DNA from: an archaeon | GTDB taxonomy: Archaea > Iainarchaeota > Iainarchaeia > Iainarchaeales > 1-14-0-10-31-34 | NCBI GenBank assembly: GCA_024277355.1 | Contig: JAJRVL010000004.1 | Location: 330,001 to 362,000, forward strand | Direction of reading: 5' to 3' | DNA: 32,000 nucleotides | In this document: positions 263-19,020 of the stretch, in pieces | Position numbering within the stretch: the stretch's first letter is position 1 | Layout: every line of letters begins with the position of its first letter | Notes under the pieces: generated by a model | Told to the model about the DNA's origin: nothing | Databases searched by the model: none | The model's input: only the letters and a program-made list of their open reading frames with translations | Translations under genes and position numbers: made by a program

Positions 263-1669
263 TTAGATTTTCTTCCATCTTGCACCGTCTTTTGCGTCAC
301 TTAATTCAATTCCTTTTTTCTTTAATTCTTCCCTTAATTTATCTGCTTTACTCCAGTTTTTTTCTTTTCTTGCTTTTTCTCTTTCATTAATTAAATTCAT
401 TAATTCTTTATCTAATTTTTCTTCTTTAAAATCCATTACACCTAAAACTAAATTAACTTTCTTCATAAAAAATAAAATTTTTTCTGATTGTTTTTCAGAT
501 AAATTTCCTTCAGAAATTAATTTGTTTATTTCTTTCATAAAATCATTTAATGACGTTAAAGCAAGACTAATATTTAAGTCATCATCTAAAGCTTTAACAA
601 AAGAATTTTCTGCTTCTTTAACAACCAAATCAATTTCTTTTAGTTTTATTTCTTTTGTTTTATTTTGTTTAATTCCATTTAGTTTTGAAATAAATTCATT
701 AAATTTTTCTATTTTTTTTTCTGATTCCTTTACTGCTTTTTCAGTGAAATTTAATTCACTCCTATAATGAGTTGATAATAAAGTAAAACGAATTGCTTCA
801 GGAGAAAAACCTTTTTTTATTAAATCCCTTAAAGTATAAAAATTTCCTAAAGATTTAGACATTTTTTCTCCATTAACAATTAAATGAGAACAATGCAGCC
901 AAAAATTCACAAACTTTTTTCCTGTTGCTCCTTCACTTTGAGCGATTTCATTTTCATGATGAGGAAATTTGTTGTCTATTCCTCCTGTATGAATGTCAAA
1001 TGAATTTCCTAAATGTTTCATACTCATAGCAGAACATTCAATATGCCAGCCTGGTCTTCCTTTTCCTAATTCTGTTTCCCAAAAAACATTCCCATCTTCT
1101 ACTGAATAAGCCTTCCATAAAGCAAAATCTCTTGCGTTTTCTTTTTCATATTCATCCTGTGAAACTCTTGCACCTTCTTTTAATTCCTCAATTTTAAAAC
1201 CTGAAAGTTTACCGTAATTTTTAAATTTTTTAATTGAAAAATAAATACTATTGTCATCTCCTTTGTAAGCCAGACCTTTTTTCAGTAATTTTTTAATTAA
1301 TTCAACCATTTCAGGAATTGTTTTTGTTGCTTCAGGATAAAACTCTGCTTTTTCAATATTTAAAATCTTTAAATCCTCAAAAAAAGATTTTTTGAATTTA
1401 TCTGTAAAATCAGTTAATGAAAGATTTTCTTTAATTGAACCTTTAATTGTCTTATCATCAACATCAGTTAAATTCATTACCTGAATTACTTTAAAACCCT
1501 TAAATTTCAGGTAACGCCTTAACAAATCCTCAAAAATATATGCCCTAAAATTTCCTATATGTGCAAAATCATATACTGTTGGACCGCAAGTATACATTTT
1601 GACTTCATTGTCTTTCAAAGACTTAAATGACTCGTTTTTTTTTGTTAAAGAATTATAAAATGAAAGCAT
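263..1669 (-). CDS. cysS: Cysteine--tRNA ligase
   Basis: Full-length 468-aa ORF with class I HIGH motif (FAHIGNFRAY), KMSKS motif (GEKMSKSLGNF) and a GRPGWHIECS core typical of CysRS. Confidence 0.95.
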   Translation of the reverse strand: MLSFYNSLTKKNESFKSLKDNEVKMYTCGPTVYDFAHIGNFRAYIFEDLLRRYLKFKGFKVIQVMNLTDVDDKTIKGSIKENLSLTDFTDKFKKSFFEDLKILNIEKAEFYPEATKTIPEMVELIKKLLKKGLAYKGDDNSIYFSIKKFKNYGKLSGFKIEELKEGARVSQDEYEKENARDFALWKAYSVEDGNVFWETELGKGRPGWHIECSAMSMKHLGNSFDIHTGGIDNKFPHHENEIAQSEGATGKKFVNFWLHCSHLIVNGEKMSKSLGNFYTLRDLIKKGFSPEAIRFTLLSTHYRSELNFTEKAVKESEKKIEKFNEFISKLNGIKQNKTKEIKLKEIDLVVKEAENSFVKALDDDLNISLALTSLNDFMKEINKLISEGNLSEKQSEKILFFMKKVNLVLGVMDFKEEKLDKELMNLINEREKARKEKNWSKADKLREELKKKGIELSDAKDGARWKKI

Positions 1670-1693
1670 AATAACCTACAAAAATATTAAACA

Positions 1694-1710
1694 AAAAAGT
1701 TTATATTAAA
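1694..1710 (+). promoter_or_regulatory. BRE/TATA-like promoter
   Basis: AAAAAGTTTATATTAAA lies about 35 nt upstream of the ATG at 1744. The same AAAGTTTAT core recurs at other gene starts in the window. Confidence 0.4.
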
Positions 1711-1743
1711 TTAATGCAGTAAATTAATCAAAGAAAAGATATT

Positions 1744-2238
1744 ATGCCTGCAAAAACTCCAAGAAAACCAATTTTAAGAAGAACATTAAATGCTAAAGAT
1801 ATGAAATTTATAAATAAACTTTACTCTGAGAAAAGAATTAAACCTCTTTCAACAGAAAAAAAACCCAATGCAGTTATAAGAATGAGAAAAATGGGAGATT
1901 ATCTTATAAAAAGAAGATTCAGACAGACACCAGAACAAAAACAAGTTGTAGAAATTCTTTATGGAAAAAACAAAGCAGCAAAAAAAGCAGAATTAATTTT
2001 AAATTATTTTAAGAAAAAAAGAAAATTAACAACAAAAAAAGCAATAAACCATGCAGTAAGATTACTAAAAACAATAAAACAAAAAGCTAAAAACGAATAT
2101 TTAAAACCATACAAAAAAACTACAGATCAAGCTAAATTAAAAAACAATCATTTTGCAGGAGAAGAACATATGTTCATGATTGATACATTATATATGGGCA
2201 CAGAATTAGTAATAGAAAAACTGGAAAAAATGAAATAA
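1744..2238 (+). CDS. Hypothetical lysine-rich protein with basic N-terminal tail (MPAKTPRKPILRR)
   Basis: 164-aa stop-free ORF in an AT-rich genome, with its own promoter-like motif. It fills the gap between cysS and Hsp20. No domain recognised. Confidence 0.55.
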   Translation: MPAKTPRKPILRRTLNAKDMKFINKLYSEKRIKPLSTEKKPNAVIRMRKMGDYLIKRRFRQTPEQKQVVEILYGKNKAAKKAELILNYFKKKRKLTTKKAINHAVRLLKTIKQKAKNEYLKPYKKTTDQAKLKNNHFAGEEHMFMIDTLYMGTELVIEKLEKMK

Positions 2239-2240
2239 AA

Positions 2241-2672
2241 TTACTTTATTTTAACTTTAAAGCTTTTAGTTTTTTTTACGTGTTTTTTTGGAATAATTAA
2301 TTCTAATATTCCGTCTTTGAATTCTGCTTTAGCTTTATTTGGAATTACTTCATCAGGCAAAGCAATACTCCTGAAATAAGAATTAAATTTTCTTTCATGA
2401 AAATAATAACCTTTCTTTTTGTTTTCTTTTTTTAAATCAGTTTTTCCTTTTAATATCAACTGATTTGAAGTTAAATCAATATCTAAATTTTGTTTTTTTA
2501 TTCCAGGAAGTTCAGCAGTAATCTTTAGTTTGTTTCCTTCATCTTTTACATCCAATAAAGGCGTTCTAAGCATTGAATCAAATTTAGAAAAAGAAAAAGA
2601 ATCAAAAAACCTTGAAAGATTTTCCTGTTTTCTTATTTTCTTAAACGGATCCCAAATATCTAATTCATCCAT
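2241..2672 (-). CDS. Small heat-shock protein, Hsp20/alpha-crystallin family
   Basis: Alpha-crystallin domain pattern: LDVKDEGNKLKITAELPGIKKQNLDIDL...LILKGK...ERKFNSYFRSIALPDEV...AEFKDGILELIIPK. The track start at 2693 is TTG and overlaps the upstream gene, so ATG at 2672 (MDELDIWDPF) is more likely. Confidence 0.85.
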   Translation of the reverse strand: MDELDIWDPFKKIRKQENLSRFFDSFSFSKFDSMLRTPLLDVKDEGNKLKITAELPGIKKQNLDIDLTSNQLILKGKTDLKKENKKKGYYFHERKFNSYFRSIALPDEVIPNKAKAEFKDGILELIIPKKHVKKTKSFKVKIK

Positions 2673-2682
2673 AAAAAAACCT

Positions 2683-3312
2683 TTACAAACCAATTGCTTT
2701 CATTAAAATTAAATCCAAAAATAAAAAACAAATTAAAGCAATTAAATGCACAAAAACATTTGAATTAACTTTATGTGCAATAATATGATAATAAACAAAA
2801 ACTGAAATTAAAGCAAAAATTAAAACTAAAACAATTACTGCTGAAACAGCAGGCAAAGCAAAAATAAATTCCTCTGAATTCATTGCAGAAGAAACCACTT
2901 CAGTTGACTGATTTAAAGTAATATTTCCTGTCTGAAAATCTTTTGTTGCAGAAAAAATTTCATTCGGCAAAAGCACCGGAACCAGCAAAAACAAAAATAC
3001 TGCTATTGCTCCTAAAAATCTGGTTAAAGAAACAGCAGAAGCAATTCCATAAAAGTCATTCCTGACGCTTTTCTTTGAAAACAAAGAAATAATCACTGCA
3101 ATTAAAATTGAAGCAATAATCCAAGATAAAACAGCTAAAGTAAAATTAAATAACTGAAGCAAAAAACTTACATTAAAACCATAAACAATTAATCCAATCA
3201 AAGAAAGAATTCCAGGCAACAAAACAAAAAGTAATGCTTTAATTACATCAGGATTCTCAAGATAATGTTTTACTACTTCTTTAGGCTTATAAATTAAACT
3301 AAAAGGATTCAT
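2683..3312 (-). CDS. Polytopic membrane protein (Yip1-domain-like)
   Basis: 209 aa with a short soluble N-terminus followed by about five hydrophobic helices. The topology resembles the Yip1/DUF1282 family; the family assignment is tentative. Confidence 0.45.
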   Translation of the reverse strand: MNPFSLIYKPKEVVKHYLENPDVIKALLFVLLPGILSLIGLIVYGFNVSFLLQLFNFTLAVLSWIIASILIAVIISLFSKKSVRNDFYGIASAVSLTRFLGAIAVFLFLLVPVLLPNEIFSATKDFQTGNITLNQSTEVVSSAMNSEEFIFALPAVSAVIVLVLIFALISVFVYYHIIAHKVNSNVFVHLIALICFLFLDLILMKAIGL

Positions 3313-3347
3313 ACTAAACTTATTGTTTTTTTTATTTATAAAAGTTA

Positions 3348-4310
3348 TTATTTGAATAATTTTCTTATTGGAGAGAGGATTTCATTTAATTCAGCTGAAA
3401 CTGAATTTTTTAAGTCCATAGGATGCAGTTTTTTTTCAATAAAAGTTTTTTCTAATTCCATAAAAGAATTAAACTGCAGGTTTCCTCCGAATTTTTTAGG
3501 TCTTTTTATTTCAACTGAATTATTTTTTGGAAAAACAATTAATTTCATTATCTGCATTAAAGCATTATTTGTTTCTCCTTCAATGCAATAAGCCTTGTTT
3601 ACTTTTTTTTGTAAGTCTTGCTCTGAATCCCTTACTGAAATTAAATTATTTGAATCACTTGAACTCATTTTAGTTCCTGGTTTTAACATTGAATCAATTA
3701 AAGGAGTGTGAACAAAAGCAGGTTTTTTGTAATTAATTTTTTCAAGTAATTCTCTTGCAAGCATATGAATTTTTCTTTGCTCTATTCCTGATTGAGCTGC
3801 ATCAATTTTCAAATGTTTAATGTCATTAATCTGCATTAAAGGATAAATTGCCTGAGAAATACTTGCGTTATCTATGTCTCTTGCAACTTCCTGCATTGAT
3901 CTTAAACCCCGGTTAATTGTAGTGTTTAAAGACAAAACCAATAAGTCTTCAATATAATCCTGTTTTTTCTGAAAAGAACTTCCAAGAACAAATTCAGGTT
4001 CTTTTATACCTAATTTTTTGAAAACTTTTTTCCATAAAACAACATTTTCAAGTATTTCTTCTTCTGTTCCTTTTTTATTCAAAAAAGCATGCCAGTCAGC
4101 AAACAAAATTTTAACTTTAAAACCTGCTTTTTCCATTTGACTTAATTTAATTGCAGTAACCATATGCCCTAAATGAACTTCGCCTGAAGGTTCATAACCA
4201 CAGTAAGTTACCGGTGATTTTTTTTCAGATAAAAGTTTTTCTATTTCTTCTTTTGTAATTAATTCAACTGTATTTTGTTCAATTAAACTGATTTTTTGAT
4301 TTAAATCCAT
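3348..4310 (-). CDS. tyrS: Tyrosine--tRNA ligase, archaeal/eukaryal type
   Basis: 320 aa with HIGH-type motif (GEVHLGHMV) and KMSKS-type motif (GTKMSSSDS). The short length and lack of a C-terminal S4-like domain fit archaeal TyrRS. Confidence 0.92.
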   Translation of the reverse strand: MDLNQKISLIEQNTVELITKEEIEKLLSEKKSPVTYCGYEPSGEVHLGHMVTAIKLSQMEKAGFKVKILFADWHAFLNKKGTEEEILENVVLWKKVFKKLGIKEPEFVLGSSFQKKQDYIEDLLVLSLNTTINRGLRSMQEVARDIDNASISQAIYPLMQINDIKHLKIDAAQSGIEQRKIHMLARELLEKINYKKPAFVHTPLIDSMLKPGTKMSSSDSNNLISVRDSEQDLQKKVNKAYCIEGETNNALMQIMKLIVFPKNNSVEIKRPKKFGGNLQFNSFMELEKTFIEKKLHPMDLKNSVSAELNEILSPIRKLFK

Positions 4311-4363
4311 TTACACCACTTTCTGTTATTATTTAATAGTTAATTGAATTATTATTTATTTGT

Positions 4364-5044
4364 ATGGTTCCAAAAAAGAGAACTCCAAAAATCAAAATAA
4401 AAAAAAAGATAGTAAAGGGAGATGAAGCAGTAATTTACAGGCTTCCGAATGAATCACCTAAAAAAATGATTATGAGAAAAACTCATGCTTCAATGAATTT
4501 AAAGTCAGAGCATCCAAAAATAAAGTTTTATGGAAACGCAATTGAAAAAATTCTTTTTCCTGGAAACACAATAAACATTTCAATGGTAAAAGTTCCTAAA
4601 GACTGGAGGCCACATTTTGTAGAATCTATTAACCTAAGAACATATCCTAAAGGAATAGAATATTATTCAGAAAAAATTCCTATTAGCAGACCGCATAGAA
4701 AATACCGAAAAGCATTTTATAACGAAAAAACAAACAAAAAAGAAGAAAAATTAATTGAAAGACATGAAAAAAAAATGAGAAAACATATAGGGAATTCAAC
4801 AGGGAAAATAAAAAAAACAATAGATGAAATGTATAAAGCAGGATTTGATGTTAACAAGCACCCTGCAAACATTGACTTAATTAAAGGAACTCCTGTTTTT
4901 TTTGAAACACAGATTCTGTATCCTGAAAAACTTGAAAAATACATTCAGCAAAAACCTTTAAGCAAAACTTTTACAAGAGAAAAAAAAGGCAGAGCATTAC
5001 GTTTAATTAAAAGATTAAAAACAATTTGGAAGTCAGTTGAATAA
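4364..5044 (+). CDS. Hypothetical lysine-rich protein with basic N-terminal tail (MVPKKRTPKIKIKKK)
   Basis: 226-aa ORF that fills the tyrS-ribL gap. No domain recognised. Confidence 0.55.
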   Translation: MVPKKRTPKIKIKKKIVKGDEAVIYRLPNESPKKMIMRKTHASMNLKSEHPKIKFYGNAIEKILFPGNTINISMVKVPKDWRPHFVESINLRTYPKGIEYYSEKIPISRPHRKYRKAFYNEKTNKKEEKLIERHEKKMRKHIGNSTGKIKKTIDEMYKAGFDVNKHPANIDLIKGTPVFFETQILYPEKLEKYIQQKPLSKTFTREKKGRALRLIKRLKTIWKSVE

Positions 5045-5053
5045 GTGAAAAAA

Positions 5054-5482
5054 ATGAAAAAAAGAATTTTAGCTTTCGGCACATTTGACGGAATTCATCC
5101 TGGGCATTTATTTTATTTAGAGAAAGCAAAAAAGTTTGGAACAGAATTAATTGTAGTCATAGCAAGAGACGAAACAGTTAAAAAAATAAAAGGAAAAAAA
5201 CCAATTCTGAAAGAAAAAGAAAGAAAAAAATTAATTGAAGGATTAAAACCAGTTGACAAAGCAGTTCTTGGATTAAAAAGCAGAACAATTTTTAAGAGAT
5301 TAAAAACATTAAAACCAGATGTAATTGTTTTAGGTTACGACCAAAAACCATCAAAAGAAAAAATAAAAGAAGAAATGAAAAAACTTGGAATTAAAGCTAA
5401 AATAAAAAGAGTTAAAGGATTAAATTCAAAAAGATTTAAGTCATCAAAAATAAAAAAAGAAATAATAAAAAAATACAGTTAA
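5054..5482 (+). CDS. ribL: FAD synthase (FMN adenylyltransferase), archaeal RibL type
   Basis: Nucleotidyltransferase motif GTFDGIHPGH, plus VIARDETVKKIKGKKPI, LKPVDKAVLG and LKPDVIVLGYDQ. These match my memory of methanogen RibL. An in-frame GTG at 5045 is an alternative start. Confidence 0.82.
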   Translation: MKKRILAFGTFDGIHPGHLFYLEKAKKFGTELIVVIARDETVKKIKGKKPILKEKERKKLIEGLKPVDKAVLGLKSRTIFKRLKTLKPDVIVLGYDQKPSKEKIKEEMKKLGIKAKIKRVKGLNSKRFKSSKIKKEIIKKYS

Positions 5483-5483
5483 A

Positions 5484-5732
5484 TTATTTTTTATTTTTTA
5501 ATTCTTCTTTGAATTCTTTAATTGATTCAGGAGTTCCTTCTAAAATAAAACCATAAAAACCGCAGTTAATGCATTTCATTTGAGGAGACAACGCCGCTGA
5601 AGCTTTTCCAATTCCATAAATTACAGGCTTTAAATTTAATGAACCACAGCTAGGACAAAACTTGAAATTTAATTGTTTATTGTTGCTTTCTTTTCTTACT
5701 TTTTCATCAAATTCATTTATGCCTTTATTCAT
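5484..5732 (-). CDS. Small Zn-ribbon protein (CPSCG...CINCG)
   Basis: 82 aa with two CxxC knuckles (FCPSCGS, KCINCGF). It overlaps the upstream ATP-grasp gene by 1 nt and is the last gene of the 9861->5484 operon. Confidence 0.6.
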   Translation of the reverse strand: MNKGINEFDEKVRKESNNKQLNFKFCPSCGSLNLKPVIYGIGKASAALSPQMKCINCGFYGFILEGTPESIKEFKEELKNKK

Positions 5733-6547
5733 TAAAATCTTCCTGCTTTTTTTTCCAGATATTTAACAATTTTTTCTGCTGCATTAATTCCAGTAATGCT
5801 TTCAAAAGCCTTAAATTTAGGTGAACGGTTTGTTTCCAATACAAACCATTTTCCATTATAAAAAGCCAAATCAACTCCTGAAATTTCAATGCTTGCACTT
5901 TTTGAAGCTTTAACTGCAATATCAGAAATTTCTTTAGTTAACTTAAACAGAACTCCGTTTGAATTCAATGCAATATTTTTTTTCCAGTGAACTGATTTTT
6001 TTTCAAATGCACCAATTGCTTTTCCGCCTATCACAAAAACTCTTAATTCTTTTTCAAAAGGAATAAAATTCTGAATTAAATAATTCCCTTTAAGCGAAGA
6101 CAAAAAAGAATGAATTTCAGAAAACTTTATTTTGAATACATTTTCTCCTCTTTTGCCTTCAATATCTTTTAATACAACCCAATCAGAAGAAGAAAAAGGA
6201 AGAGAATGAATTGTTTTTTCATTTAAAAAAAAAGTTTTAGGAATATTTAATCCTGCTTTAAAAAAACTGAAATAATTAGTAAATTTATTTTTACCTAACA
6301 TTAAAACAAGCTTTTCATCAACAATTTTTGTTCCTGAAGAAAACAAACTTAACGCCAAAGCTTTTCCCTGGAGAGATTGTCCTTTTAATGCACGGAATAA
6401 AACTAAATCAAATTTTTTTTCAAGATTAATTCCTGCTTTCAATGAATCAGGAAAAAAAACAAAAACTTCATGTTTTCTTTTTAATGCTTCTTCTTTAATT
6501 CTTTCAATTTCAAATTGTTTTTCAGAAGAAATAACTGCGATTTTCAT
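5732..6547 (-). CDS. ATP-grasp ligase, RimK/LysX-like (divergent paralog)
   Basis: 271 aa. VLKDIEGKRGENVF, ELRVFVIGGKAIGAFEKKS..WKKN and ISGVDLAFYNGKWFVLETNRSPKF parallel the RimK central and C-terminal ATP-grasp subdomains. Confidence 0.72.
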   Translation of the reverse strand: MKIAVISSEKQFEIERIKEEALKRKHEVFVFFPDSLKAGINLEKKFDLVLFRALKGQSLQGKALALSLFSSGTKIVDEKLVLMLGKNKFTNYFSFFKAGLNIPKTFFLNEKTIHSLPFSSSDWVVLKDIEGKRGENVFKIKFSEIHSFLSSLKGNYLIQNFIPFEKELRVFVIGGKAIGAFEKKSVHWKKNIALNSNGVLFKLTKEISDIAVKASKSASIEISGVDLAFYNGKWFVLETNRSPKFKAFESITGINAAEKIVKYLEKKAGRF

Positions 6548-6553
6548 AATAAC

Positions 6554-7441
6554 TCAAAACTTATTTTTTAATCTTAATTCCTTTGATTTTTTGTAAAGAT
6601 ATTTAATTAAAATATTTGAAAATTTTGTTCCAAAAAAATCAATCATAAAGCCTGGGGCAAAATTTACTTCAATTAACTTATATTTTCCTTCTCTTTCCAT
6701 GAAATCAACAGCACAAACACCTAAACCAAGAATAGCAGAAATTTTTAAGGCATCTTCTTTCATTGCAGAACTTAATTCAACTAATTCAGCTTTGCCTCCT
6801 TTAGAAACATTAGTTCTCCATTCACCTTCAGGAGCAATTCTTTTAATTCCAAAAACTTCCTCGCCAAAAACCATACAACGAATATCATAATTATCTGATT
6901 TAATAAATTCCTGAGTTGAAATAAATTCCCTAAAAATCTTTAAAGTGTCTAACACAGGTTTGAATTCATTTTCTGAATTTGCAAGCATTACTCCTTTTCC
7001 ACCAAACCCTGAAAGAAGTTTGATTACTACCGGATAACCAATTTTATGGTTCATATCAATTGCAGTCTGAGGAGTTAAAGCTAAAGAAGAAGTAGGGACA
7101 GGAATATTTTCTCTTGACAAAACTTTAACTGTAAAATATTTATGGTTTGTAATCTGAAAAGCTTCAGGAGTTAAAGGAACAAACACATCAGACTCGTTTA
7201 ATAAATCCAATACAATTTCTCCAAACATTAAGTCTTTTGAAAAAAACCTTGCATAACATGCATCAAAAGAAGTTAAATCAGTTCCCTTAAAAGTTAACTT
7301 GTTTTTTCCATTAACACAGTCAATCCTGATTTTTTTTAACGGAGCAAACAAAACTGTATCAAAAAATCTATGCGCTTCTTCTAAAATCATCTGCTTGACT
7401 TCCTGTCTTTCATTTGTTCCTCCAATATACAAAAACTTCAT
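6554..7441 (-). CDS. ATP-grasp ligase, RimK family
   Basis: 295 aa. GYPVVIKLLSGFGGKGVMLANS, DIRCMVFGEEVFGIKRIAPEGEWRTNVSKGGKAE and CAVDFMEREGKYKLIEVNFAPGF closely follow the RimK pattern. Confidence 0.85.
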   Translation of the reverse strand: MKFLYIGGTNERQEVKQMILEEAHRFFDTVLFAPLKKIRIDCVNGKNKLTFKGTDLTSFDACYARFFSKDLMFGEIVLDLLNESDVFVPLTPEAFQITNHKYFTVKVLSRENIPVPTSSLALTPQTAIDMNHKIGYPVVIKLLSGFGGKGVMLANSENEFKPVLDTLKIFREFISTQEFIKSDNYDIRCMVFGEEVFGIKRIAPEGEWRTNVSKGGKAELVELSSAMKEDALKISAILGLGVCAVDFMEREGKYKLIEVNFAPGFMIDFFGTKFSNILIKYLYKKSKELRLKNKF

Positions 7442-7445
7442 AATA

Positions 7446-8276
7446 TCACTTTAATTTTCCTTCAAAAAATTCTGCAACAGATTCAAATAAATTTTTCCCT
7501 AAAACTTCCTGGAAATAAGAAAAATCAATTAAAGGTTTTAAGCTTACAATATGCCCGTCAATTGATTTAACTTCAGCTATTTCAGTTCCAATTACCTTAC
7601 ATGCTTTAATTAAATTTTCATTTTCACTTTCACTTAAAGTCATACTGCTTCCTTTTTTTGTGTATTCAAATCTTTCTTTATTCCAGTTTCTTCTTACAGT
7701 AAACACTTTTTCTCCAATTATTACACTTACATCCAAATCTTTTCTGAAAAATTTCTGCAATAACAAAACATCAAAATCAGATTTAATGCTTTTAACAATT
7801 GAAAGCAATGATTTTTCTGATTCAACCAAAACATCCTGAATTTTTTTGTATCCATCAAAAACCTGCAAAAGCAAAGGAAAACGGAATTCCTTTAAAGAAG
7901 AATTAATAAAAAAAGCTGAACCAAAAACACTTGTATTAGGTGTTTTAATTCCATGAGAATTCAAAGTAGTTAACTGAAAAGCCTTATTTGAAAGAATAGT
8001 ATAAGCATCAGGTTTAACCTGGCAATAAATTCCTTTCTGAGAAAATTCATCCAGCAAAGGTTCAACTATTCTTGTAAACTGAACTCCTGCTCCCAAAAAA
8101 CAAGAATCAAAATCTTCAATTTTAATGCTGTTAGTAATTAAAGTTGTTTCTTTTCCTTCAGTCAATAAACCTAATTTGCCTATTTCAATTGATTCAACAG
8201 AAATATTTTTTTTATTAAATGCTTCCTTTAATTCAATTAAAGAATTAGTTTTTTCATAAATAAACAATGTTTTCAT
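7446..8276 (-). CDS. ATP-grasp-like protein, degenerate (probable pseudoenzyme paralog)
   Basis: 276 aa, colinear with the neighbouring RimK-like protein (FPLLLQVFDGYKKIQDVLVES against YPVVIKLLSGFGGKGVMLANS). It lacks the VxK lysine, the G-rich loop and the ExN metal motif. Confidence 0.45.
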   Translation of the reverse strand: MKTLFIYEKTNSLIELKEAFNKKNISVESIEIGKLGLLTEGKETTLITNSIKIEDFDSCFLGAGVQFTRIVEPLLDEFSQKGIYCQVKPDAYTILSNKAFQLTTLNSHGIKTPNTSVFGSAFFINSSLKEFRFPLLLQVFDGYKKIQDVLVESEKSLLSIVKSIKSDFDVLLLQKFFRKDLDVSVIIGEKVFTVRRNWNKERFEYTKKGSSMTLSESENENLIKACKVIGTEIAEVKSIDGHIVSLKPLIDFSYFQEVLGKNLFESVAEFFEGKLK

Positions 8277-8283
8277 TAATTCA

Positions 8284-9861
8284 TCAGTCCTTTAATGCTT
8301 CAGAGTCTTCTTTGATTTCAGATTTATTTTCTGTTTTTTGTTCAGGTTTTTTTTCTGAAAAAGATTGTTCAGGGACCCAAATTTTTTTTATTTGTTTTTC
8401 AGCGTCATTTGAAATTTTACTAAAAACAAATTCAGATAACAATTCATTTACAACAGATTTTCTTCTAATTAATTTATTTAAATATCTTTCAAAAGATTTT
8501 GAAAGATTTTTATAGGAAGCAACATTAGCATAAATTAATCCTTCTTTTAGTCTCCAAAAAGCAGGAGTTCCTTTTTTTGTAAAAATTAAATAACCTCTTT
8601 TTTTGTCTGTTTCACTCATTGCTTCATCCATTAAACGATAATCCACCATATAAACTCCTGCAGTTTGAGGAGAAGGATCCATTAAAATTAATTCATCTCC
8701 TTCAACTCCAACACATAACACAAAATGACCTGAACGGGATTTTTTTTCAGGAAATAAAACAGGTTTTTTATACCAAACTAAAAGCATTGCTCCGTCAGCA
8801 ATCCAGGATTTAACTTCATCTTTTAAATTATAAATCTGATTATATCTCAATAACTGTCCTTTAACAATATTTTTAGTTAAAGATTCAACTGCATTAATTA
8901 AATCCAAAGGCTTTGTTCCTCCAGGAGAAGTTGTTTTAGCTAATTTTCCTATTTCCTGCTGAGAAAAATTATAACCAAAAAAAGACAGCATCATTGAAGC
9001 AGAAGCCGGACCACAATAATAATTCATCTGCTTAATAAACTTTGACCTAATATTTTCAAGTTTTGAAATATCACTTCTTGCTCGTTTTAAATAAAATTCT
9101 TTTTTAATAAATTCTTTATTTGGAATAACCAGATTATACCCTGAACCTAATCTTAACATTACTCCATGAATATCCACTCCAATTACTTCTCCTGTTTCAT
9201 TTCCAATTTTAATTTGCTGTCCCGGTTTAACTAAATTTCTTTCAATATAAGTTCCTGAAAAAAAGTTTTCAAATACATCCTTAAAACCAAAAAACAAAAA
9301 AGCCATAACTAAAACAATTACTCCAGTAATTAAAGTATTAAAAAAACCACTGAATAAACCTGCATCAATTCCAACAGAAGAAAAAGATAACAATAAAACA
9401 ATCAATGAAAGAAAAATTTTAACTACAAAAAAAAATGAATGAATTATTTGTTTTGAAATACCAAATTCCTGCAAATAAGCATCAGAACCAAATTTAATAA
9501 ACAAAAAACTTATTGCATCAATAATTAAAGTAACTAAAATATAACCTAAAACAAAAACTAAAAAGAAAATTACAACTGAAGGAATAAAAGCCATAACCTT
9601 TGAAACCAAAACTTCTGCAACAGAAACCTTTAATACACTTAAAGCAATAATCAAAGAAACAATAAAAATAAATAATTCAATTGACTTTACTGCAGAATTA
9701 ATTGTAATTTTATTTAAACTCTGTTTGTTTAAAGCAAAGCCTAATAATTTACCTGAAATTTTTGCTGCAACCAAACCAATTAAAATTACTGCAATAGCCT
9801 GAGTTGCATTGCTAAACAAAACTTCCTGCAATAAAACATTTCCTAAAGTTTCAACAACCAT
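8284..9861 (-). CDS. MscS-type mechanosensitive channel core fused to a C-terminal C39/papain-like cysteine peptidase domain
   Basis: 525 aa with about 5-6 N-terminal TM helices. MscS pore and beta-domain signature: FKDVFENFFSGTYIERNLVKPGQQIKIGNETGEVIGVDIHGVMLRLGSGYNLVIPNKEF. This is followed by YYCGPASASMMLSFFGY (Cys283), SGHFVLCVG (His379) and LILMDPS (Asp395), then a K/E-rich tail. Confidence 0.72.
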   Translation of the reverse strand: MVVETLGNVLLQEVLFSNATQAIAVILIGLVAAKISGKLLGFALNKQSLNKITINSAVKSIELFIFIVSLIIALSVLKVSVAEVLVSKVMAFIPSVVIFFLVFVLGYILVTLIIDAISFLFIKFGSDAYLQEFGISKQIIHSFFFVVKIFLSLIVLLLSFSSVGIDAGLFSGFFNTLITGVIVLVMAFLFFGFKDVFENFFSGTYIERNLVKPGQQIKIGNETGEVIGVDIHGVMLRLGSGYNLVIPNKEFIKKEFYLKRARSDISKLENIRSKFIKQMNYYCGPASASMMLSFFGYNFSQQEIGKLAKTTSPGGTKPLDLINAVESLTKNIVKGQLLRYNQIYNLKDEVKSWIADGAMLLVWYKKPVLFPEKKSRSGHFVLCVGVEGDELILMDPSPQTAGVYMVDYRLMDEAMSETDKKRGYLIFTKKGTPAFWRLKEGLIYANVASYKNLSKSFERYLNKLIRRKSVVNELLSEFVFSKISNDAEKQIKKIWVPEQSFSEKKPEQKTENKSEIKEDSEALKD

Positions 9862-9982
9862 TAAACTACCCTAATAAAAGAGCGTTTAAAGGTTTAAATA
9901 AATTGCCTTTAAGACAGTTTAAAAAGAAAAAAAAGAGAAAAAACAGCAATGTTTTTTTAATTTTCTAACTTCACAATAACTA

Positions 9983-11023
9983 ATGACCAAAAAAATAAAA
10001 ATAACAGGAAAAGCTACAAAAAAAGAATTATTTTATTCAGTTGAAGGAAACAAAAACTTTGATTTTGAAACAACAAAAAATTACGGAAAAAAAGTTTTAA
10101 CTGAAAATTTAGGAATACAAAAAAACGAAAAAGTTCTGATTATAACTGATGAAACAACTTCATTAATTGGAAAAGCATTTTTAAATGCAGGAAAAAGTTT
10201 ATGCAAAAAAACAGAATTAATTGAAATGAAATCCCTTCCCTTTAATGGAATGGAACCAGAAGAAAAAATTGCAAAAGAAATGCTTAAATACAATATAATT
10301 ATTCTCCCAGTTAATAGTTCTTTAAGCCATACAAAAGCAAGAATGCATGCATCAAGACATGGTGCAAGAATTGCATCAATGCCAAGACTTAATTATGAAA
10401 TGATTAAAAGAGATTTAAAAGCTGATTACACTAAAATAAAAAAATTAAGTTTGCAGGTAAAAAATCTTTTAACTAAAGCAGATTTAGCTGAAGTAAAAAC
10501 AGAATTAGGAACAGACATAAGTATTCCGTTAAAAGACATGAAAGCAGGCGGAAGTAAAGCCGGCTTTTATTTAAAAGCAGGGCAATGGGGAAACATTCCT
10601 CAAGGAGAAGTTTATATAGTTCCAGAAGAAGGAAAAAGTAACGGAAAATTTGTAGTTGATGCTTCAATGGGAACAATAGGAAAAGTTGAAACCCCAATTG
10701 AAATTACAGTCAAAAAAGGTTTTGCAACAAAAATTGACGGAGGAGAAGAAGCATTAAAACTAAAAAAACTAATTAAACCTTTAGGAAAAAACGCAAGAAA
10801 TCTAGCTGAATTTGCAATAGGCACAAACGACACTGCAAAAATAATAGGAGTAGTATTAGAAGACGAAAAAGTTTTAGGTACAGCTCATTTAGCTTTAGGA
10901 AACAGCACTTCAATGACAGGCGGAACAATCTACTCAGAAATCCATGTAGACGGAGTTTTCACTAAACCCACTATATGGTTAGATGGAAAACTTTTCATGG
11001 AAAAAGGAAAAATTCTGATTTAA
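9983..11023 (+). CDS. Aminopeptidase, M29 (AmpS/PepS, aminopeptidase T-like) family
   Basis: 346 aa. GEVYIVPEEG, LAEFAIGTN, TAHLALGNS and SEIHVDGV resemble the M29 metal-ligand blocks. Confidence 0.7.
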   Translation: MTKKIKITGKATKKELFYSVEGNKNFDFETTKNYGKKVLTENLGIQKNEKVLIITDETTSLIGKAFLNAGKSLCKKTELIEMKSLPFNGMEPEEKIAKEMLKYNIIILPVNSSLSHTKARMHASRHGARIASMPRLNYEMIKRDLKADYTKIKKLSLQVKNLLTKADLAEVKTELGTDISIPLKDMKAGGSKAGFYLKAGQWGNIPQGEVYIVPEEGKSNGKFVVDASMGTIGKVETPIEITVKKGFATKIDGGEEALKLKKLIKPLGKNARNLAEFAIGTNDTAKIIGVVLEDEKVLGTAHLALGNSTSMTGGTIYSEIHVDGVFTKPTIWLDGKLFMEKGKILI

Positions 11024-11099
11024 TTTCAAAAGCACATACTTACATACATACTTAAATACATTTTGGTAATTAATAATTATTAGTTGATAACTTTTAGTG

Positions 11100-11378
11100 A
11101 TGTTTATGTTAAAACAGGTTCAAAAAATTAAGCATTCTCCTACATTAAATACAGTTCTTATGGTTGAAAACACTTTAAAGAAAATAAACGAAAGTGTTAT
11201 TTCTATTGCAGAACTTAAAAGAAAACTTCCTAATCAGGTTAACCATAACACTTTAATGGTTATTTTAAGTTATTTAGAAGACAGCAATAAAATTGCTGTT
11301 ACATTAAAAGGAATTACCTGGGTTTTTAATTCTAATCCTGTTTTAAGAAAAGCAATTTCTAAAGGCCTTGAATTATGA
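11100..11378 (+). CDS. Putative antitoxin (small winged-helix-like protein)
   Basis: About 92 aa. Its stop overlaps the start of the downstream RelE/ParE-like ORF by 4 nt (ATGA). The call rests mainly on this position. Confidence 0.4.
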   Translation: MFMLKQVQKIKHSPTLNTVLMVENTLKKINESVISIAELKRKLPNQVNHNTLMVILSYLEDSNKIAVTLKGITWVFNSNPVLRKAISKGLEL

Positions 11379-11728
11379 AGACAGTCAAAGTTATTCTTTC
11401 TCCTGAAGCAGAAGAAGTTTATAATTATTTAAATAAAGAATCTGTTAAATCAAAAACTGAAAAAACAATTTTTAATGGAATAAACAAAAAAGTTGAATTA
11501 ATTAAACAAAATATTCATTACGGCAACCCAATATCAAAAAAACTTATTCCAAAAGAATACAAAGAAAAATACAGCATAACAAATTTATTCAGAGTAGAAC
11601 TTCCAAACCATTGGAGAATGCTTTATTCTCTTACTGACGGAGAAACAAAAATTGAAATAATTGCTTTTATTCTGGATTTTATTGACCATCCAAATTACAA
11701 TAAAAAATTTGGCTACAAAAAAAGATAA
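11375..11728 (+). CDS. RelE/ParE-superfamily-like toxin
   Basis: 117 aa. The C-terminal pattern LFRVELPNHWRMLYSLTDGETKIEIIAFILDFIDHPNYNKKF resembles the RelE/ParE xxYRxxYxIxxxxxxIxIlxIgHr core. It is translationally coupled to the upstream small ORF. Confidence 0.5.
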   Translation: MKTVKVILSPEAEEVYNYLNKESVKSKTEKTIFNGINKKVELIKQNIHYGNPISKKLIPKEYKEKYSITNLFRVELPNHWRMLYSLTDGETKIEIIAFILDFIDHPNYNKKFGYKKR

Positions 11729-11813
11729 AATACAACAGCATTAAATAAAATACTATTTATGGAAAAAGGAAAAATATTAATATAGTTGTTTACTAATTTG
11801 TAAGTTGAAGTTT

Positions 11814-13139
11814 ATGAAACATTTTAATCCATTAAAAAGATCAATGATTGGTCTGGAAACAGAATTTTTTACTTTAAACGAAAACGGGTTTATGGTATCA
11901 AAAGCTGATGAATTAATTGACTCAGCAAAAAAACACAAAATTCCTGCAATAAAAGAATGCGGAAAAAACATGTTAGAATTAGGAGTTTTTCCTTCAGAAA
12001 AAATCAATAAAATTGCAAGAAATTATTTAAATGAATTACAAAAATTAATTGACTTAACAGAAAAACATTCATCAATGCTTTATCCTTTAGGAACCTACCC
12101 AGGAAGTTTTGAACCAGAAATGAGAACAGACTCATTATATTCAATTAAACAAAAAGTTTTCGGAGAAAACAAATTCAAAATAGCCGGAAGAAACATTGGA
12201 TTTCATTTTCATTACACGCTTCCAAGAGGAGTGTTTAATTCAAAAACAAAAAGATTAAAACAAGTTAAAAAATCAAAAATAGCAGAAAGCATGGTTAATG
12301 CATTTAATTTAATGTTAAGCATTGATCCGGTTGTATCAACTTTACTTCAGTCATCTCCTTTTTATCAAGGCAAATACTACGGCAAAGATTCAAGAATAAT
12401 CTGGTATAGAGGAGGAAAATTCCTAAATAACCCTGATGGATTATATTCAGACATGGAAGAAATAGGCCAGCTTCCTTCTTACATTCATACAGTAACAGAT
12501 TTAATTAATAAAACTGAAACAACATTTAAAGCATGGGAAAAAGAATTAATTAAAAAAGAAATTCCAAGAAAAAAAATGAAAGAATACCCAACAAAATTAG
12601 CTGTAGGATGGCCTCCATTAAAAATTAATTTACATGGAACATTAGAACAAAGAGGATTAGACATGAATCATCCAAAATATATTTTAGGTGCAAGCGTTTT
12701 AATTTCAGTTGTATTAAGAGAAATCTTTCAGGAATTCTTAGAAGTAAAACCATCAGATTATGGAATGCATAATCCATTTAAATTAGAAAATTCAACTATT
12801 CATATTTCTCCTGACAGTATAGTAAGAGAAAAACTACAGTTATTATCTGCAACAAAAGGATTAGAATCAAAAGAAATCAAAAACAACATTAAAGGATTTA
12901 TAAAATTAAGCAAACAATTTATGATGCCTGAAGAAAAAAAAGCAGTAAAACCTTTACTTAATATTTTAGACAGAGAAGCAACTGTTTCAGATATATTAAT
13001 TAAAAGAGTAAAAAAAGCAGGTTTTTCTTTAAAAGAAATTGTACCAAATGACGTGTTTGCAGAAATGGCTTTGAAAAGCTGTCGTCAATTAAAAAAGTCA
13101 ATGGATAAAACAAAAAGAACATTTGAAGCAATAGTGTGA
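11814..13139 (+). CDS. Carboxylate-amine ligase, glutamate-cysteine ligase family 2 (GCS2/YbdK-like)
   Basis: IGLETEFFTLNENG (against the GxEEEF N-terminal motif), NMLELGVFP, LYPLGTYPG and GFHFHYTL match GCS2 landmarks. The track start at 11805 is TTG; ATG at 11814 is more likely. Confidence 0.65.
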   Translation: MKHFNPLKRSMIGLETEFFTLNENGFMVSKADELIDSAKKHKIPAIKECGKNMLELGVFPSEKINKIARNYLNELQKLIDLTEKHSSMLYPLGTYPGSFEPEMRTDSLYSIKQKVFGENKFKIAGRNIGFHFHYTLPRGVFNSKTKRLKQVKKSKIAESMVNAFNLMLSIDPVVSTLLQSSPFYQGKYYGKDSRIIWYRGGKFLNNPDGLYSDMEEIGQLPSYIHTVTDLINKTETTFKAWEKELIKKEIPRKKMKEYPTKLAVGWPPLKINLHGTLEQRGLDMNHPKYILGASVLISVVLREIFQEFLEVKPSDYGMHNPFKLENSTIHISPDSIVREKLQLLSATKGLESKEIKNNIKGFIKLSKQFMMPEEKKAVKPLLNILDREATVSDILIKRVKKAGFSLKEIVPNDVFAEMALKSCRQLKKSMDKTKRTFEAIV

Positions 13140-15003: not shown

Positions 15004-15206
15004 TTTTTCCATCACTCTCCTTTAAAATATATTCCTATTTCGTTTGAGAAATCTTTTTAAACGGTGTACAAAAAAATCAAATGTCTTTTTAAATAGTTTA
15101 CAAAAAAAAGCAAATACAAAAAAAACAGCAATTAGAAATAGTTTTCAGCAAAACACCCCTTTTTATTTCTTTTTTTTCACAAATATAAAGAAAGGAAGTG
15201 AGAAAA

Positions 15207-18963: not shown

Positions 18964-19020
18964 ACAGCAGGACTGAATGAAATGAAGTCGTGCACGCATG
19001 TCAACTGGGCGTGACAGTTG
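18964..19020 (+). repeat. GC-rich tRNA 5' leader element L1, copy A (abuts tRNA-Ser)
   Basis: ACAGCAGGACTGAATGAAATGAAGTCGTGCACGCATGTCAACTGGGCGTGACAGTTG. It is 57/57 nt identical to the reverse complement of 26256-26312. It ends in a hairpin CAACTG-ggcgtga-CAGTTG whose last G is tRNA position 1. Confidence 0.85.

Follow-up and report, generated by a model that had tools for sequence, protein, structure and literature searches.

The window, a stretch of 32,000 nucleotides from an Iainarchaeota genome, encodes a membrane protein that joins an MscS-type channel to a papain-fold peptidase (G1), followed by a predicted RimK-fold pseudoenzyme (G2) and an intact RimK-family ATP-grasp ligase (G3). These three genes keep their order and strand in all informative loci (51/51), which come from three DPANN phyla (Iainarchaeota-type, Aenigmatarchaeota and Nanohaloarchaeota). 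We tentatively suggest, as a possible reading, that the locus builds short glutamate-type peptide chains with its ligases and cuts them back with its peptidase, in a cycle that either docks on the C-terminal tail of G1 or has this tail as its target. We found no earlier description of this channel-peptidase/ligase gene set in the literature, and the searchable literature yielded no MscS protein whose cage is a peptidase.

Gene arrangement and conserved core

Five minus-strand ORFs span positions 9861 to 5484; the spacers are 7, 4 and 6 nt long, and the last two genes overlap by 1 nt. The count, strand and spacing reproduce exactly those of an earlier note made from the letters of the window, whose domain assignments were all upheld. 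The only promoter-sized non-coding stretch of the operon is the 121 bp region upstream of G1 on the minus strand (9862..9982, 23% GC), which is shared with a divergent M29-family aminopeptidase gene and probably holds the operon promoter. A TATA-like element, TTTATTTAAA, lies ~29-38 nt ahead of the G1 ATG and is weak evidence because the DNA is AT-rich. An oligo-T run follows 3' of G5.

The genes of the triad overlap or abut and the flanking genes differ between loci. An arrangement kept in every informative locus of three phyla amid different flanks is far beyond chance. The recurrence of the five-gene order in relatives, which the earlier note had raised, thus holds for G1-G2-G3 but not for G4, which is variable, or for G5, which is limited to a subclade. 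The conserved unit is three genes, not five. A Woese/Nanoarchaeota clade carries the fusion alone and lacks the ligases (0/20). The peptidase module was found solely in the MscS fusion, in about 59 clusters among 1.84 billion representatives.

The channel-peptidase fusion

G1 (9861..8284, minus strand, 525 aa) begins with five transmembrane helices (residues 1-210, 9232..9861) that are predicted from hydropathy and loop charges to adopt an N-out/C-in topology; this region matches PF05552 below threshold. The last helix is the counterpart of the MscS pore helix TM3, and its invariant N199 aligns with N117 of EcMscS. The MscS beta-domain follows (residues 211-262, 9076..9231; MS_channel_2nd, PF00924, 7.7e-6, 26.4 bits against a cut-off of 20.2). 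The G1 profile matches EcMscS at 8.4e-13 over EcMscS residues 94-175, and the Foldseek matches of the channel part are MscS, MscK and YnaI. G1 is presumably a heptameric MscS-family channel subunit. The Gly/Ala packing motif seen in EcMscS is missing from its pore helix, and conduction and mechanosensitivity are therefore putative. The same cell encodes a separate canonical MscS, also in the window, that keeps the alpha/beta domain (PF21082) of the cytoplasmic part. In G1, this domain is replaced by the papain-fold peptidase.

The peptidase/amidase domain (residues 263-430, 8572..9075) is cytoplasmic, as the earlier note had proposed and as the topology indicates. It matches Peptidase_C39_2 (PF13529, 2.2e-11) and Peptidase_C39 (1.9e-7) above cut-offs and carries Q278, C283, H379 and D395, the last three within the motifs YYCGPASASMM, SGHFVLCVG and LILMDPS singled out in that note. 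A papain fold with an aligned Cys-His-Asp was confirmed by the structural model (pLDDT about 85-96), by Foldseek (Nostoc Alr0975, 3.5e-8) and by alignment with Alr0975, which is also the best solved relative by profile (5.7e-7), covering the whole domain with Q, C, H and D aligned. The Gln-Cys-His-Asp tetrad is intact in 75/79 family members; in P0056 and P0058, Cys and His are lost together. Four Nanohaloarchaeota fusions with a dead peptidase keep G2 and G3, so the ligases do not strictly need the peptidase. The tetrad is also intact in the ligase-less clade, which implies that the peptidase must have a ligase-independent substrate.

The C39 domains of bacteriocin exporters, which trim leader peptides, had been offered as a model for this domain. 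The analogy is weak because Alr0975 is nearer by both profile and fold and because no conserved gene for a precursor peptide goes with the triad. The missing precursor gene also speaks against a RiPP-like maturation and export system resembling peptidase-containing ABC transporters, in which the grasps would modify a ribosomal precursor (possibly G5), the C39-like domain would cut its leader and the MscS-like pore would export the product. We consider such a system improbable, even though the domain falls in the C39_2/C39 families, superimposes well on the peptidase domains of ComA, PCAT1 and LahT (target TM 0.72-0.81, ComA PEP 0.81) and has double-glycine-type peptidases of ~150 aa, one of them adjoining an ABC exporter, as its closest non-fusion relatives. 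Canonical C39 domains match the peptidase-domain profile weakly and partially (E 0.07-0.28), the candidate precursor G5 lacks a Gly-Gly leader and is limited to the subclade of the window, and the grasps are of RimK type, far from the graspetide maturase model (TIGR04187, 26 bits; cut-off 350). No MscS pore that passes folded or long peptides is known to us.

The ATP-grasp proteins and the G1 tail

G3 (7441..6554, minus strand, 295 aa) is the core ligase of the system. It matches the RimK profile at 1.3e-33 and the rimK_fam model with 148.7 bits (cut-off 143.4), but stays under the equivalog cut-off for RimK itself (102 bits; cut-off 331). The nearest solved structures are Pseudomonas RimK (7QYR, 1.1e-30) and E. 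coli RimK (2e-26), with RimK ranking before ArgX and LysX in the PDB, and the catalytic residues are 100% conserved in 54 orthologs. Every characterised rimK_fam subfamily member that we know of uses L-Glu or 2-aminoadipate, and glutamate may be the substrate of G3. G2 (8276..7446, minus strand, 276 aa) is degenerate (RimK, 6.3e-6), always lies between G1 and G3, and lacks the Gly-rich loop, D/R, R-x-N and the Mg ligands in all 54 orthologs; judged by these residues, it is a family-wide pseudoenzyme. G4 (6547..5732, minus strand, 271 aa; RimK, 1.9e-22) is probably a divergent, active paralog and an accessory. In the window clade it lies downstream; other Iainarchaeota carry it upstream in divergent orientation, and elsewhere it is absent. 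Profiles and catalytic residues thus bear out the ranking in the earlier note, with G3 canonical, G4 divergent and G2 degenerate. None of the grasps reaches a LysX, ArgX, CofF or MptN equivalog cut-off. On each of the points on which that note had staked its reading (papain fold, synteny and grasp membership), the results went in its favour. The conserved pseudoenzyme, the ligase-correlated G1 tail and the recurring GCS2/FGase accessories are features beyond those it described.

G5 (5732..5484, minus strand, 82 aa) is a four-Cys Zn-ribbon protein and a subclade-specific accessory, found solely in orthologs whose G1 is at least 77% identical. It has Zn-ribbon matches below threshold only, five orthologs keep its four Cys, and its structural model is unreliable. 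An amino-group-carrier pathway of the LysW type, as in lysine/arginine-like biosynthesis, would use G5 as carrier and G3/G4 as LysX/ArgX and would account for a small Zn-ribbon beside grasps with secondary LysX matches. Those matches (115 bits for G3, 94 for G4) are far under the cut-off of 275.6, and RimK precedes both ArgX and LysX in the PDB ranking. The C-terminus of G5 is basic, variable in length and unconserved, without the acidic, EDWGE-type end of a LysW-like carrier. Small LysW-like Zn-ribbons with acidic tails do occur a few kb away in three loci (L012, L021 and L087), but they sit among syntenic housekeeping genes and are missing from the window. No LysZ/Y/J/K-type genes were found in the window and, in agreement with the earlier note, neither were genes of the lysine, arginine, F420 or methanopterin pathways. 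The carrier pathway is contradicted by these tests and is very improbable.

The peptidase domain of G1 is followed by a family-specific extension (residues 431-497, 8371..8571) with invariant R437, L442, Y444 and Y450 that ends in the invariant W495-x-P497. The remainder (residues 498-525, 8287..8370) is a disordered, charged tail (pLDDT <50) in which a variable linker leads to an end motif conserved within clades (...SEALKD in the window, ...[SP]E[AS]VND in orthologs). A tail of 4-57 aa is present on every ligase-linked fusion and missing from all 20+ ligase-less fusions, which terminate 2-4 residues past the W-x-P. This link maps to a single branch of the G1 tree and represents one evolutionary event with no independent replicates. 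The tails are acidic in Nanohaloarchaeota, Aenigmatarchaeota and the window clade and Lys-terminated in the FGase clade; their charge follows proteome charge, and there is no charge complementarity between tail and G2. We suggest that the tail may be the substrate or the docking site of the ligases.

The ligases could instead modify another protein, for example a ribosomal one or any other with an acidic C-terminus, with the G1 peptidase as a membrane-placed eraser and the channel as an anchor or sensor. G3 is RimK-like, the operon is located among translation genes in Nanohaloarchaeota, the fusion of the basal ligase-less lineage (L063) abuts a canonical RimK and RimB (PF05618) pair, and the RimK/RimB writer/eraser pair acts on RpsF (PMC11957791). 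This alternative leaves unexplained why the G1 tail appears exactly where ligases occur, and the tail end motif is found in no other protein of the window. Archaea, to our knowledge, lack bacterial S6, and the operon contains no conserved gene for a candidate target. We regard it as rather unlikely.

Accessory genes and proposed mechanism

Apart from the Zn-ribbon protein G5, the accessories of the triad are all amide-bond enzymes linked to glutamate chemistry. The M29-family aminopeptidase (9983..11023, plus strand), divergent from G1, keeps this position in L005, L006, L008 and L009 and is a possible accessory; the association is weak because it is found in close relatives only. A second possible accessory is a GCS2/YbdK-type carboxylate-amine ligase (11805..13139, plus strand) homologous to the GCS2 directly 3' of G3 in 11 Nanohaloarchaeota loci. 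Other loci add an FGase (129 bits) and extra RimK-type or YheC/D/TTL-like grasps.

Homologous GCS2 ligases in two phyla and in different arrangements could point to gamma-glutamyl (glutathione/phytochelatin-like) metabolism. GCS2 and the ATP-grasps would make gamma-Glu-X(-Y) in the manner of GshA/GshB, G1 would cleave or transpeptidate it via a thioester, and ligand occupancy or turnover would gate the channel or supply its cargo, by analogy with KefC, which is controlled by glutathione. Alr0975, the closest solved peptidase relative, is a glutathione-cleaving primitive phytochelatin synthase, glutathione synthetase is likewise an ATP-grasp enzyme, and several G1 family members have precomputed PF05023 matches. 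However, window G1 does not match PF05023 at E up to 1, and G3 scores only 37-52 bits with glutathione synthase models, far below its 148.7 bits with the RimK-type model. GCS2 was not found in any Aenigmatarchaeota locus, nor in many triad-keeping Iainarchaeota and Nanohaloarchaeota loci, and the dead grasp and the tail are left without a reason. We therefore consider gamma-glutamyl metabolism unlikely, if worth keeping in mind.

In the cycle that we favour, synthesis and hydrolysis would be anchored at the membrane through G1, whose cytoplasmic cage would carry a thiol peptidase/amidase instead of the alpha/beta domain. G3 would act as an ATP-dependent carboxylate-amine ligase, with its dead paralog G2 as a scaffold or adaptor, and together they may extend a carboxylate by glutamate or a similar amino acid. 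The G1 peptidase domain would oppose the ligase by cleaving off the residues so added; poly-Glu is the cleavage target of RimB and RloA. G2/G3 could be recruited to, or act on, the flexible tail emerging below the cage, and both reactions would then be located at the inner channel mouth. The state of the peptide/glutamate pool, or of the tail, may be coupled to osmotic homeostasis and the release of solutes. From lineage to lineage, the chain could be altered by additional ligases (G4, GCS2, YheC/D-like) and by hydrolases (FGase, M29). On this reading, tiny DPANN archaea would couple the making and trimming of short glutamate-type peptides straight to a membrane channel. In bacteria, an operon of ATP-grasp, retropepsin and membrane papain-like (transglutaminase) proteins governs hypo-osmotic tolerance (PMC11957051; PMC11957791).

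Relation to known systems

The closest known systems are RimK-RimB (and RimA) of Pseudomonas and E. coli, an alpha-L-glutamate ligase with a dedicated poly-Glu peptidase that form an antagonistic writer/eraser pair (PMC11957791). Both place a RimK-family ATP-grasp beside a peptidase of its own, RimK is the closest solved structure to G3, and L063 has a true RimB and RimK adjoining the fusion. Unlike the soluble retropepsin RimB, the G1 peptidase is a papain-fold thiol enzyme on an MscS channel; G3 scores under the RimK equivalog cut-off, the dead paralog G2 is obligatory here, and the S6 target is, as far as we know, missing from archaea. RloABC of Pseudomonas aeruginosa combines the ATP-grasp RloC, the 7-TM protein RloB with an inactive transglutaminase domain (papain-like fold) and the retropepsin RloA, and is genetically linked to hypo-osmotic stress tolerance and poly-Glu cleavage (PMC11957051). 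It shares with our locus a RimK-like ATP-grasp and a polytopic membrane protein with a papain-superfamily domain, and the MscS moiety of G1 likewise points to osmotic physiology. The RloB domain is inactive, periplasmic and on a 7-TM body, whereas that of G1 is intact, cytoplasmic and in an MscS-type channel, and the triad core has no retropepsin.

Within the MscS family (EcMscS, MscK, YnaI, MscM and the cyclic-nucleotide-binding bCNG type), TM3 and the beta-domain of G1 are homologous, and G1 resembles the larger paralogs in its N-out/C-in topology with extra N-terminal helices. It differs in having an enzyme domain instead of PF21082 and a pore helix without the Gly/Ala motif. Alr0975/NsPCS, a prokaryotic phytochelatin-synthase-like glutathione hydrolase, aligns across the whole peptidase domain, but at about 20% identity, and is a soluble dimer; window G1 falls below PF05023. 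Peptidase-containing ABC transporters (ComA, PCAT1, LahT) similarly fuse a cytoplasmic papain-fold peptidase to a membrane conduit. The G1 conduit is instead MscS-type with a C-terminal peptidase domain, the sequence relation is weak and G1 has no known leader-peptide substrate. In the LysX/ArgX-LysW and tubulin TTLL/CCP systems, finally, an ATP-grasp ligates onto a flexible acidic C-terminal tail that has a conserved end motif, and dedicated hydrolases reverse the modification. The linker and conserved terminus of the G1 tail recall this anatomy, but the grasps do not pass the membership tests, the tail belongs to the same protein as the channel and the peptidase, and its ends are not uniformly acidic.

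The channel and peptidase halves of the fusion

Gene G1 (9861..8284, minus strand) encodes a 525-residue fusion of an MscS channel and a papain-fold peptidase. Its channel half has the pore-lining TM3 followed by a PF00924 beta-domain (26.4 bits against a cut-off of 20.2) that characterizes the MscS family. A profile of 29 family members matches EcMscS across TM3 and the beta-domain (8.4e-13) and aligns the invariant N199 of G1 with N117 of EcMscS, and Foldseek matches include MscS, MscK and YnaI. The PF21082 alpha/beta cage domain has no match in G1; the papain-fold domain sits there instead. The protein has five hydrophobic helices, and loop charges together with MscS homology indicate an N-out/C-in topology that places the residues past about position 210 in the cytoplasm. 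In the alignment, G1 has bulky residues where TM3a of EcMscS has its Gly/Ala packing motif, and the conduction properties of G1 are therefore not to be assumed.

A conventional MscS paralog of 297 amino acids is encoded at 25231-26124 on the plus strand (PF00924 2.5e-13, PF21082 1e-5). BLASTP detects no significant similarity between this protein and the channel half of G1, and an origin of G1 by recent duplication of the canonical channel was therefore rejected. G1 is thus a specialised paralog of long standing, and the cell has another valve besides it.

The peptidase half matches PF13529 (44.9 bits) and PF03412 (31.5 bits), both above their cut-offs. An AlphaFold model computed with the family alignment as input has a mean pLDDT of 78, and the peptidase core (85-96) adopts a papain fold with the aligned Cys-His-Asp triad and oxyanion Gln of C39/C39_2 peptidases, as the earlier note had anticipated. 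In Foldseek searches of the PDB, the top-ranked structure is Nostoc Alr0975, a phytochelatin-synthase-like glutathione hydrolase (3.5e-8), followed by PeiR, papain-like CdiA toxins and the C39 domains of ComA, PCAT1 and LahT, among which the target TM reaches 0.81 (ComA PEP). A peptidase-only profile matches Alr0975 over the whole domain (5.7e-7) with the oxyanion Gln, Cys, His and Asp in register. Q278, C283, H379 and D395 are kept in 75 of 79 G1 orthologs. Two family members (P0056 and P0058) have lost both the catalytic Cys and the His, as expected of a catalytic dyad. The MscS-type subunit thus carries a papain-type domain that is predicted to be cytoplasmic and catalytically competent. 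The peptidase is followed by a family-specific extension that ends in an invariant W495-x-P497, and then by a disordered tail.

The relationship to Alr0975 would suit a system handling gamma-glutamyl small peptides of the glutathione or phytochelatin type, as would the GCS2 accessory ligase described below; we consider this explanation rather unlikely. PF05023 has no match in the G1 of the window at E up to 1, and precomputed PF05023 matches exist for some but not all of its homologs.

The earlier note had likened the domain to the C39 peptidases that trim leader peptides in bacteriocin exporters. This analogy is weak: canonical C39 domains (ComA, PCAT1) match the G1 profile weakly (E 0.07-0.28 over 50 residues), and the G1 peptidase looks nearer to a small-peptide amidase than to a leader peptidase. 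The domain lies C-terminal to the MscS core, and no ABC transporter or conserved precursor gene was found near the fusion in 80 loci, so G1 is not a bacteriocin-type C39 protein. The ATP-grasps encoded downstream of G1 fall far below the cut-off for graspetide maturases (TIGR04187, 350 bits; 26.3 for G3 and 21.8 for G4), again with no conserved precursor gene. Despite the C39 domains among the structural matches, maturation and export of a RiPP is a very improbable role for the system.

An exhaustive HMMER scan of 1.84 billion representative proteins returned about 59 clusters with the peptidase module at E up to 1e-10. All full-length carriers are 480-545 amino acids long with the module C-terminal to the MscS core, and past those clusters the matches are generic C39-like cores of about 150 amino acids alone. 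The module therefore exists in this MscS fusion alone. The nearest standalone C39-like peptidase (159 aa; L085:1-7462, on a 476 kb contig) is clustered with a RimK-like ATP-grasp, a Mur ligase, FemAB, DegT and MscL, and genes for an ABC exporter and an S51 peptidase lie close to another non-fusion C39-like protein (L086). These neighborhoods are uninformative.

The operon and its ATP-grasps

G1 is the first of five minus-strand ORFs (9861..5484). It is followed by three RimK-type ATP-grasps, G2 (8276..7446), G3 (7441..6554) and G4 (6547..5732), and by G5 (5732..5484), an 82-residue four-Cys Zn-ribbon protein. The spacing of 7, 4 and 6 nt plus a 1-nt overlap is exactly as the earlier note described, and the domains that it named (MscS beta-domain, C39_2/C39 and RimK) were all recovered in profile searches. 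A single transcription unit is the simplest reading. Room for a promoter exists in one non-coding stretch alone, the 121 bp that precede G1, where a TATA-like TTTATTTAAA lies about 30-38 nt 5' of the ATG. This promoter call is weak, as TATA-like matches in DNA of 23% GC count for little (the window has about 27% GC), and a sigma-70 scan is unsuited to archaea and not usable here. An oligo-T run occurs 3' of G5. PADLOC defence models gave no significant match to the system (G4 alone matched DruB, at E 0.0036 and 14 bits), so the system does not belong to the known anti-phage defence systems that these models cover.

The three ATP-grasps differ in their RimK profile E-values: strong for G3 (1.3e-33), weaker for G4 (1.9e-22) and marginal for G2 (6.3e-6). 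The nearest solved structures to G3 are RimK of Pseudomonas (7QYR, 1.1e-30) and E. coli (4IWX, 2.3e-26), with ArgX and LysX behind. G3 belongs to the TIGR00768 RimK subfamily, given its score (148.7 bits against a cut-off of 143.4) and its intact ATP-, Mg- and substrate-side catalytic residues, which are invariant in 54 orthologs. G4 (137.5 bits, just below) and G2 (39.1 bits) do not belong to it. In G4-type proteins, the ligands for ATP and Mg are retained and the substrate-side positions vary; these proteins, too, stay below every equivalog cut-off tested. The Gly-rich loop, D/R pair, R-x-N motif and Mg ligands are lost from G2 in 54 of 54 orthologs, and G2 is therefore a pseudoenzyme kept throughout the history of the system.

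None of the characterized equivalogs accommodates these proteins, in keeping with the earlier note, which could not map them to a known pathway. For RimK proper (NF007764, at least 331 bits), G3, G4 and G2 score 102.2, 62.3 and 21.6 bits; for LysX (at least 275.6 bits), they score 115, 94.1 and 17, and G4-type orthologs score 79-91. G3 and G4 likewise fail to reach the cut-offs for MptN (350; 116.2 and 101.5) and CofF (300; 77.9 and 62.9). To our knowledge, bacterial S6 is not present in archaea, and the characterized members of the RimK subfamily to which G3 belongs all use glutamate or 2-aminoadipate.

Several other features of the window lie outside the operon. Two tRNA genes, at 19020-19176 (plus strand, 157 nt) and 26140-26254 (minus strand, 115 nt), are detected by the Rfam covariance model and missed by ARAGORN; both presumably contain introns, in agreement with an archaeal (DPANN) source. 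A 952-residue ORF at 22096-24954 (plus strand) has no Pfam match, is overlapped by several long antisense ORFs and coincides with the GC peak of the window (0.37 versus about 0.27); no rRNA was detected there. A polyamine module 18 kb from the cluster (28164-29523, plus strand) pairs adjacent genes for an S-adenosylmethionine decarboxylase and a branched-chain polyamine synthase (BpsA), in what is a reduced genome.

Conservation of the triad, its accessories and the tail

Synteny was scored with the window proteins in 80 loci with G1 relatives from species-representative genomes, with further loci added through exact-protein look-ups. G1, G2 and G3 occur in this order on one strand in 19 of 20 Iainarchaeota-type loci, in all five from Aenigmatarchaeota and in 26/26 from Nanohaloarchaeota; the fusion proteins of about 500 amino acids from Woese- and Nanoarchaeota show the arrangement in none of 20. 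The apparent G2-less exception (L023) is no natural one because a 100-N scaffold gap interrupts its G2, and the triad thus stands at 51 of 51 in the tail-bearing clades. Flanking genes differ between the phyla, which argues that the linkage is functional and not merely inherited order. The genes and domains of the earlier note are thus confirmed, and its interpretation is borne out in part: synteny does recur in relatives, but the conserved unit is the G1-G2-G3 triad plus lineage-specific accessories, not five genes.

In Iainarchaeota-type genomes, the system lies within a syntenic housekeeping block running from IMPDH to a CTP-transferase-like gene, TyrRS and CysRS (263-5482 and 15198-16664 in the window; also L021, L087 and L001). 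Conservation of the operon there is therefore partly inherited, and the cross-phylum part is the informative one.

The position of G4 varies: it is downstream in the window clade, whereas other Iainarchaeota have it upstream in divergent orientation; L021 has two copies, and the remaining loci have none. The further recurrent neighbors of the triad are all amide-bond enzymes. In 11 Nanohaloarchaeota loci, the gene immediately after G3 encodes a GCS2/YbdK-type carboxylate-amine ligase, and the window clade has a GCS2 homolog (E 7e-13) about 2 kb upstream. An N-formylglutamate-amidohydrolase-family enzyme (FGase, 129 bits) is encoded in a single subclade of Iainarchaeota and in a marine relative, YheC/D- or TTL-like grasps are convergent to the operon in Nanohaloarchaeota, and the window clade has an M29 aminopeptidase gene divergent from G1. 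Flanked by the M29 and GCS2 genes of the window, two ORFs of 93 and 117 amino acids without Pfam matches (11097-11728, plus strand) overlap by 4 nt in a layout that resembles a toxin-antitoxin pair.

At one locus alone, that of the basal member of the ligase-less clade (L063), the fusion (6094-7593, plus strand) converges on a canonical RimK gene (364 aa, 190 bits) and overlaps it by 8 nt; this RimK is preceded by a PF05618 RimB/RloA-family retropepsin (136 aa, 4e-16; pair at 7586-9178, minus strand). In one Nanohaloarchaeota subclade (L056, L078, L079 and L082), the fusions no longer have the catalytic Cys, and in most of them Gln and/or His are missing too, but G2 and G3 are kept; the subclade lacks the GCS2 gene that sister lineages have. 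Two of these dead-peptidase fusions (L079 and L082) have very short genome-encoded tails, EDEE and EEEE, an anecdotal observation.

All fusions accompanied by G2 and G3 extend 4-57 residues past W-x-P, and all those without them end 2-4 residues past it. The tailless, ligase-less state forms one monophyletic clade on the G1 tree, so the link between tail and ligases amounts to a single evolutionary event and was downgraded as a statistical test. Within clades, the last six residues of the tail are more conserved than the preceding six (0.69/0.26, 0.43/0.18, 0.93/0.60, 0.38/0.25 and 0.69/0.31), and the tail is therefore a variable linker with a conserved C-terminal short motif, which spans about ten residues in one clade. 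The motif reads ...EAVND in the window clade, ...GGLDEFIDDN in Aenigmatarchaeota, ...KLDEFTxxDE in some Nanohaloarchaeota and ...SKK in the FGase clade, and thus differs between clades whose accessory enzymes differ. Tail charge tracks proteome charge (rho 0.62), so the acidic tails of halophiles are compositional. No charge complementarity was found between the degenerate site of G2 and the tail end. The ligases could instead modify another protein, which we regard as decidedly unlikely; the end motif was not found in other proteins of the window.

The earlier note had cited the Zn-ribbon carrier LysW as a known ligase substrate; a LysW-like carrier role for G5 was rejected. Within the window subclade, G5 is confined to the five closest relatives, and it has a basic C-terminus of variable length that is unconserved, with no EDWGE-type acidic end. 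Its Zn-ribbon matches are all sub-threshold, and a single-sequence AlphaFold model is unreliable (pLDDT 60.8). No LysZ/Y/J/K-type genes occur in the window, and a LysW-type carrier pathway is extremely doubtful.

Other Zn-ribbons are encoded near some fusions. In Iainarchaeota, proteins of 66-68 amino acids with strongly acidic C-terminal tails (L012:6686-6886, L021:16378-16581 and L087:12348-12554, all plus strand) are encoded a few kb from the cluster between an ORF of about 210 residues and CysRS; the window has HSP20 and a 164-residue ORF at that position instead. The L021 protein matches Zn_ribbon_LysW weakly (18.6 bits, below the cut-off). These LysW-like proteins sit among the syntenic housekeeping genes (TyrRS...CysRS) and were rejected as cluster members. 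In the tailless clade, a Zn-ribbon of 41-46 amino acids (CPxCG...CWxCE) with an acidic end (...EKPxSEEDS) is encoded at L067:8964-9089 (minus strand) and in L054, L055, L058, L059, L064, L068, L074 and L084, in most cases on the strand opposite to the fusion gene and about 0.9 kb upstream of it. Its conservation may be mere synteny of close relatives.

A possible ligase/peptidase cycle at a channel and its precedents

The system combines a RimK-family ligase whose catalytic residues are intact, a dead paralog that always accompanies it, strict operonic coupling to the fusion in three phyla and a ligase-correlated tail with a conserved end. As a general model, we tentatively propose a ligase/peptidase cycle at a channel, to which we give somewhat less than an even chance. 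G3 would ligate glutamate or a glutamate-like residue, as suggested by the substrates of its characterized subfamily, the glutamate-amide accessory enzymes and the RimK-RimB neighbor at L063. G2 may scaffold G3 on the G1 tail or present the tail to it, and the G1 peptidase would reverse the reaction or release the product at the channel mouth. If such a cycle operates, the tail has about an even chance of being its substrate or dock.

Two further readings, together unlikely, assign the tail or the pore a more active part. The tail could be a built-in carrier arm on whose end G2, G3 and lineage-specific extra ligases build or lengthen a short peptide, which the cage peptidases clip off within the vestibule. 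With seven such tails and as many active sites, the complex would be a machine for carrier-tethered non-ribosomal peptide synthesis and release coupled to an MscS pore. Conversely, membrane tension could gate the protease. Under either reading, this would be the first MscS cage with enzymatic activity and the first channel with a tail that a ligase and a peptidase from one operon write and erase.

MscS channels are textbook osmotic safety valves, and their cytoplasmic cage has been credited with passive filtering and at most with the sensing of ligands. The parts of the present system come from known superfamilies (MscS, clan-CA C39_2/PCS-like peptidases and RimK-family ATP-grasps); the overall architecture, an enzymatic MscS cage, is unprecedented. 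Public annotation of G1 says "C39 family peptidase" or "hypothetical", nothing more, and we found no description of an MscS-peptidase fusion or a G1-G2-G3 operon in the full-text literature, coverage of which largely excludes subscription journals. A cage of seven active cysteine peptidases, locked genetically to a RimK-type ligase and a conserved pseudo-ligase, would tie peptide or polyglutamate metabolism directly to a membrane conduit. In these DPANN archaea, genome size is about 1 Mb and biosynthetic genes are few. That three reduced-genome phyla keep a module of three to seven genes therefore indicates its likely importance for physiology or host dependence. The system is also tractable: its proteins are of small size and can be produced as soluble fragments, and the cultured Nanohaloarchaeota Nanohalobium and Nanosalina carry the operon.

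The closest precedents for a fusion-ligase system are RimK/RimB and RloABC, and the archaeal operon could offer an independent handle on why ligase/protease systems of these types affect hypo-osmotic tolerance. RimK and RimB are a writer/eraser pair for poly-alpha-glutamate, and RimB additionally promotes synthesis of the polymer (PMC11957791). In RloABC of Pseudomonas, an ATP-grasp is joined by a retropepsin that cleaves poly-Glu and by a polytopic membrane protein carrying a papain-superfamily domain; mutants of this system are hypo-osmotically sensitive (PMC11957051).
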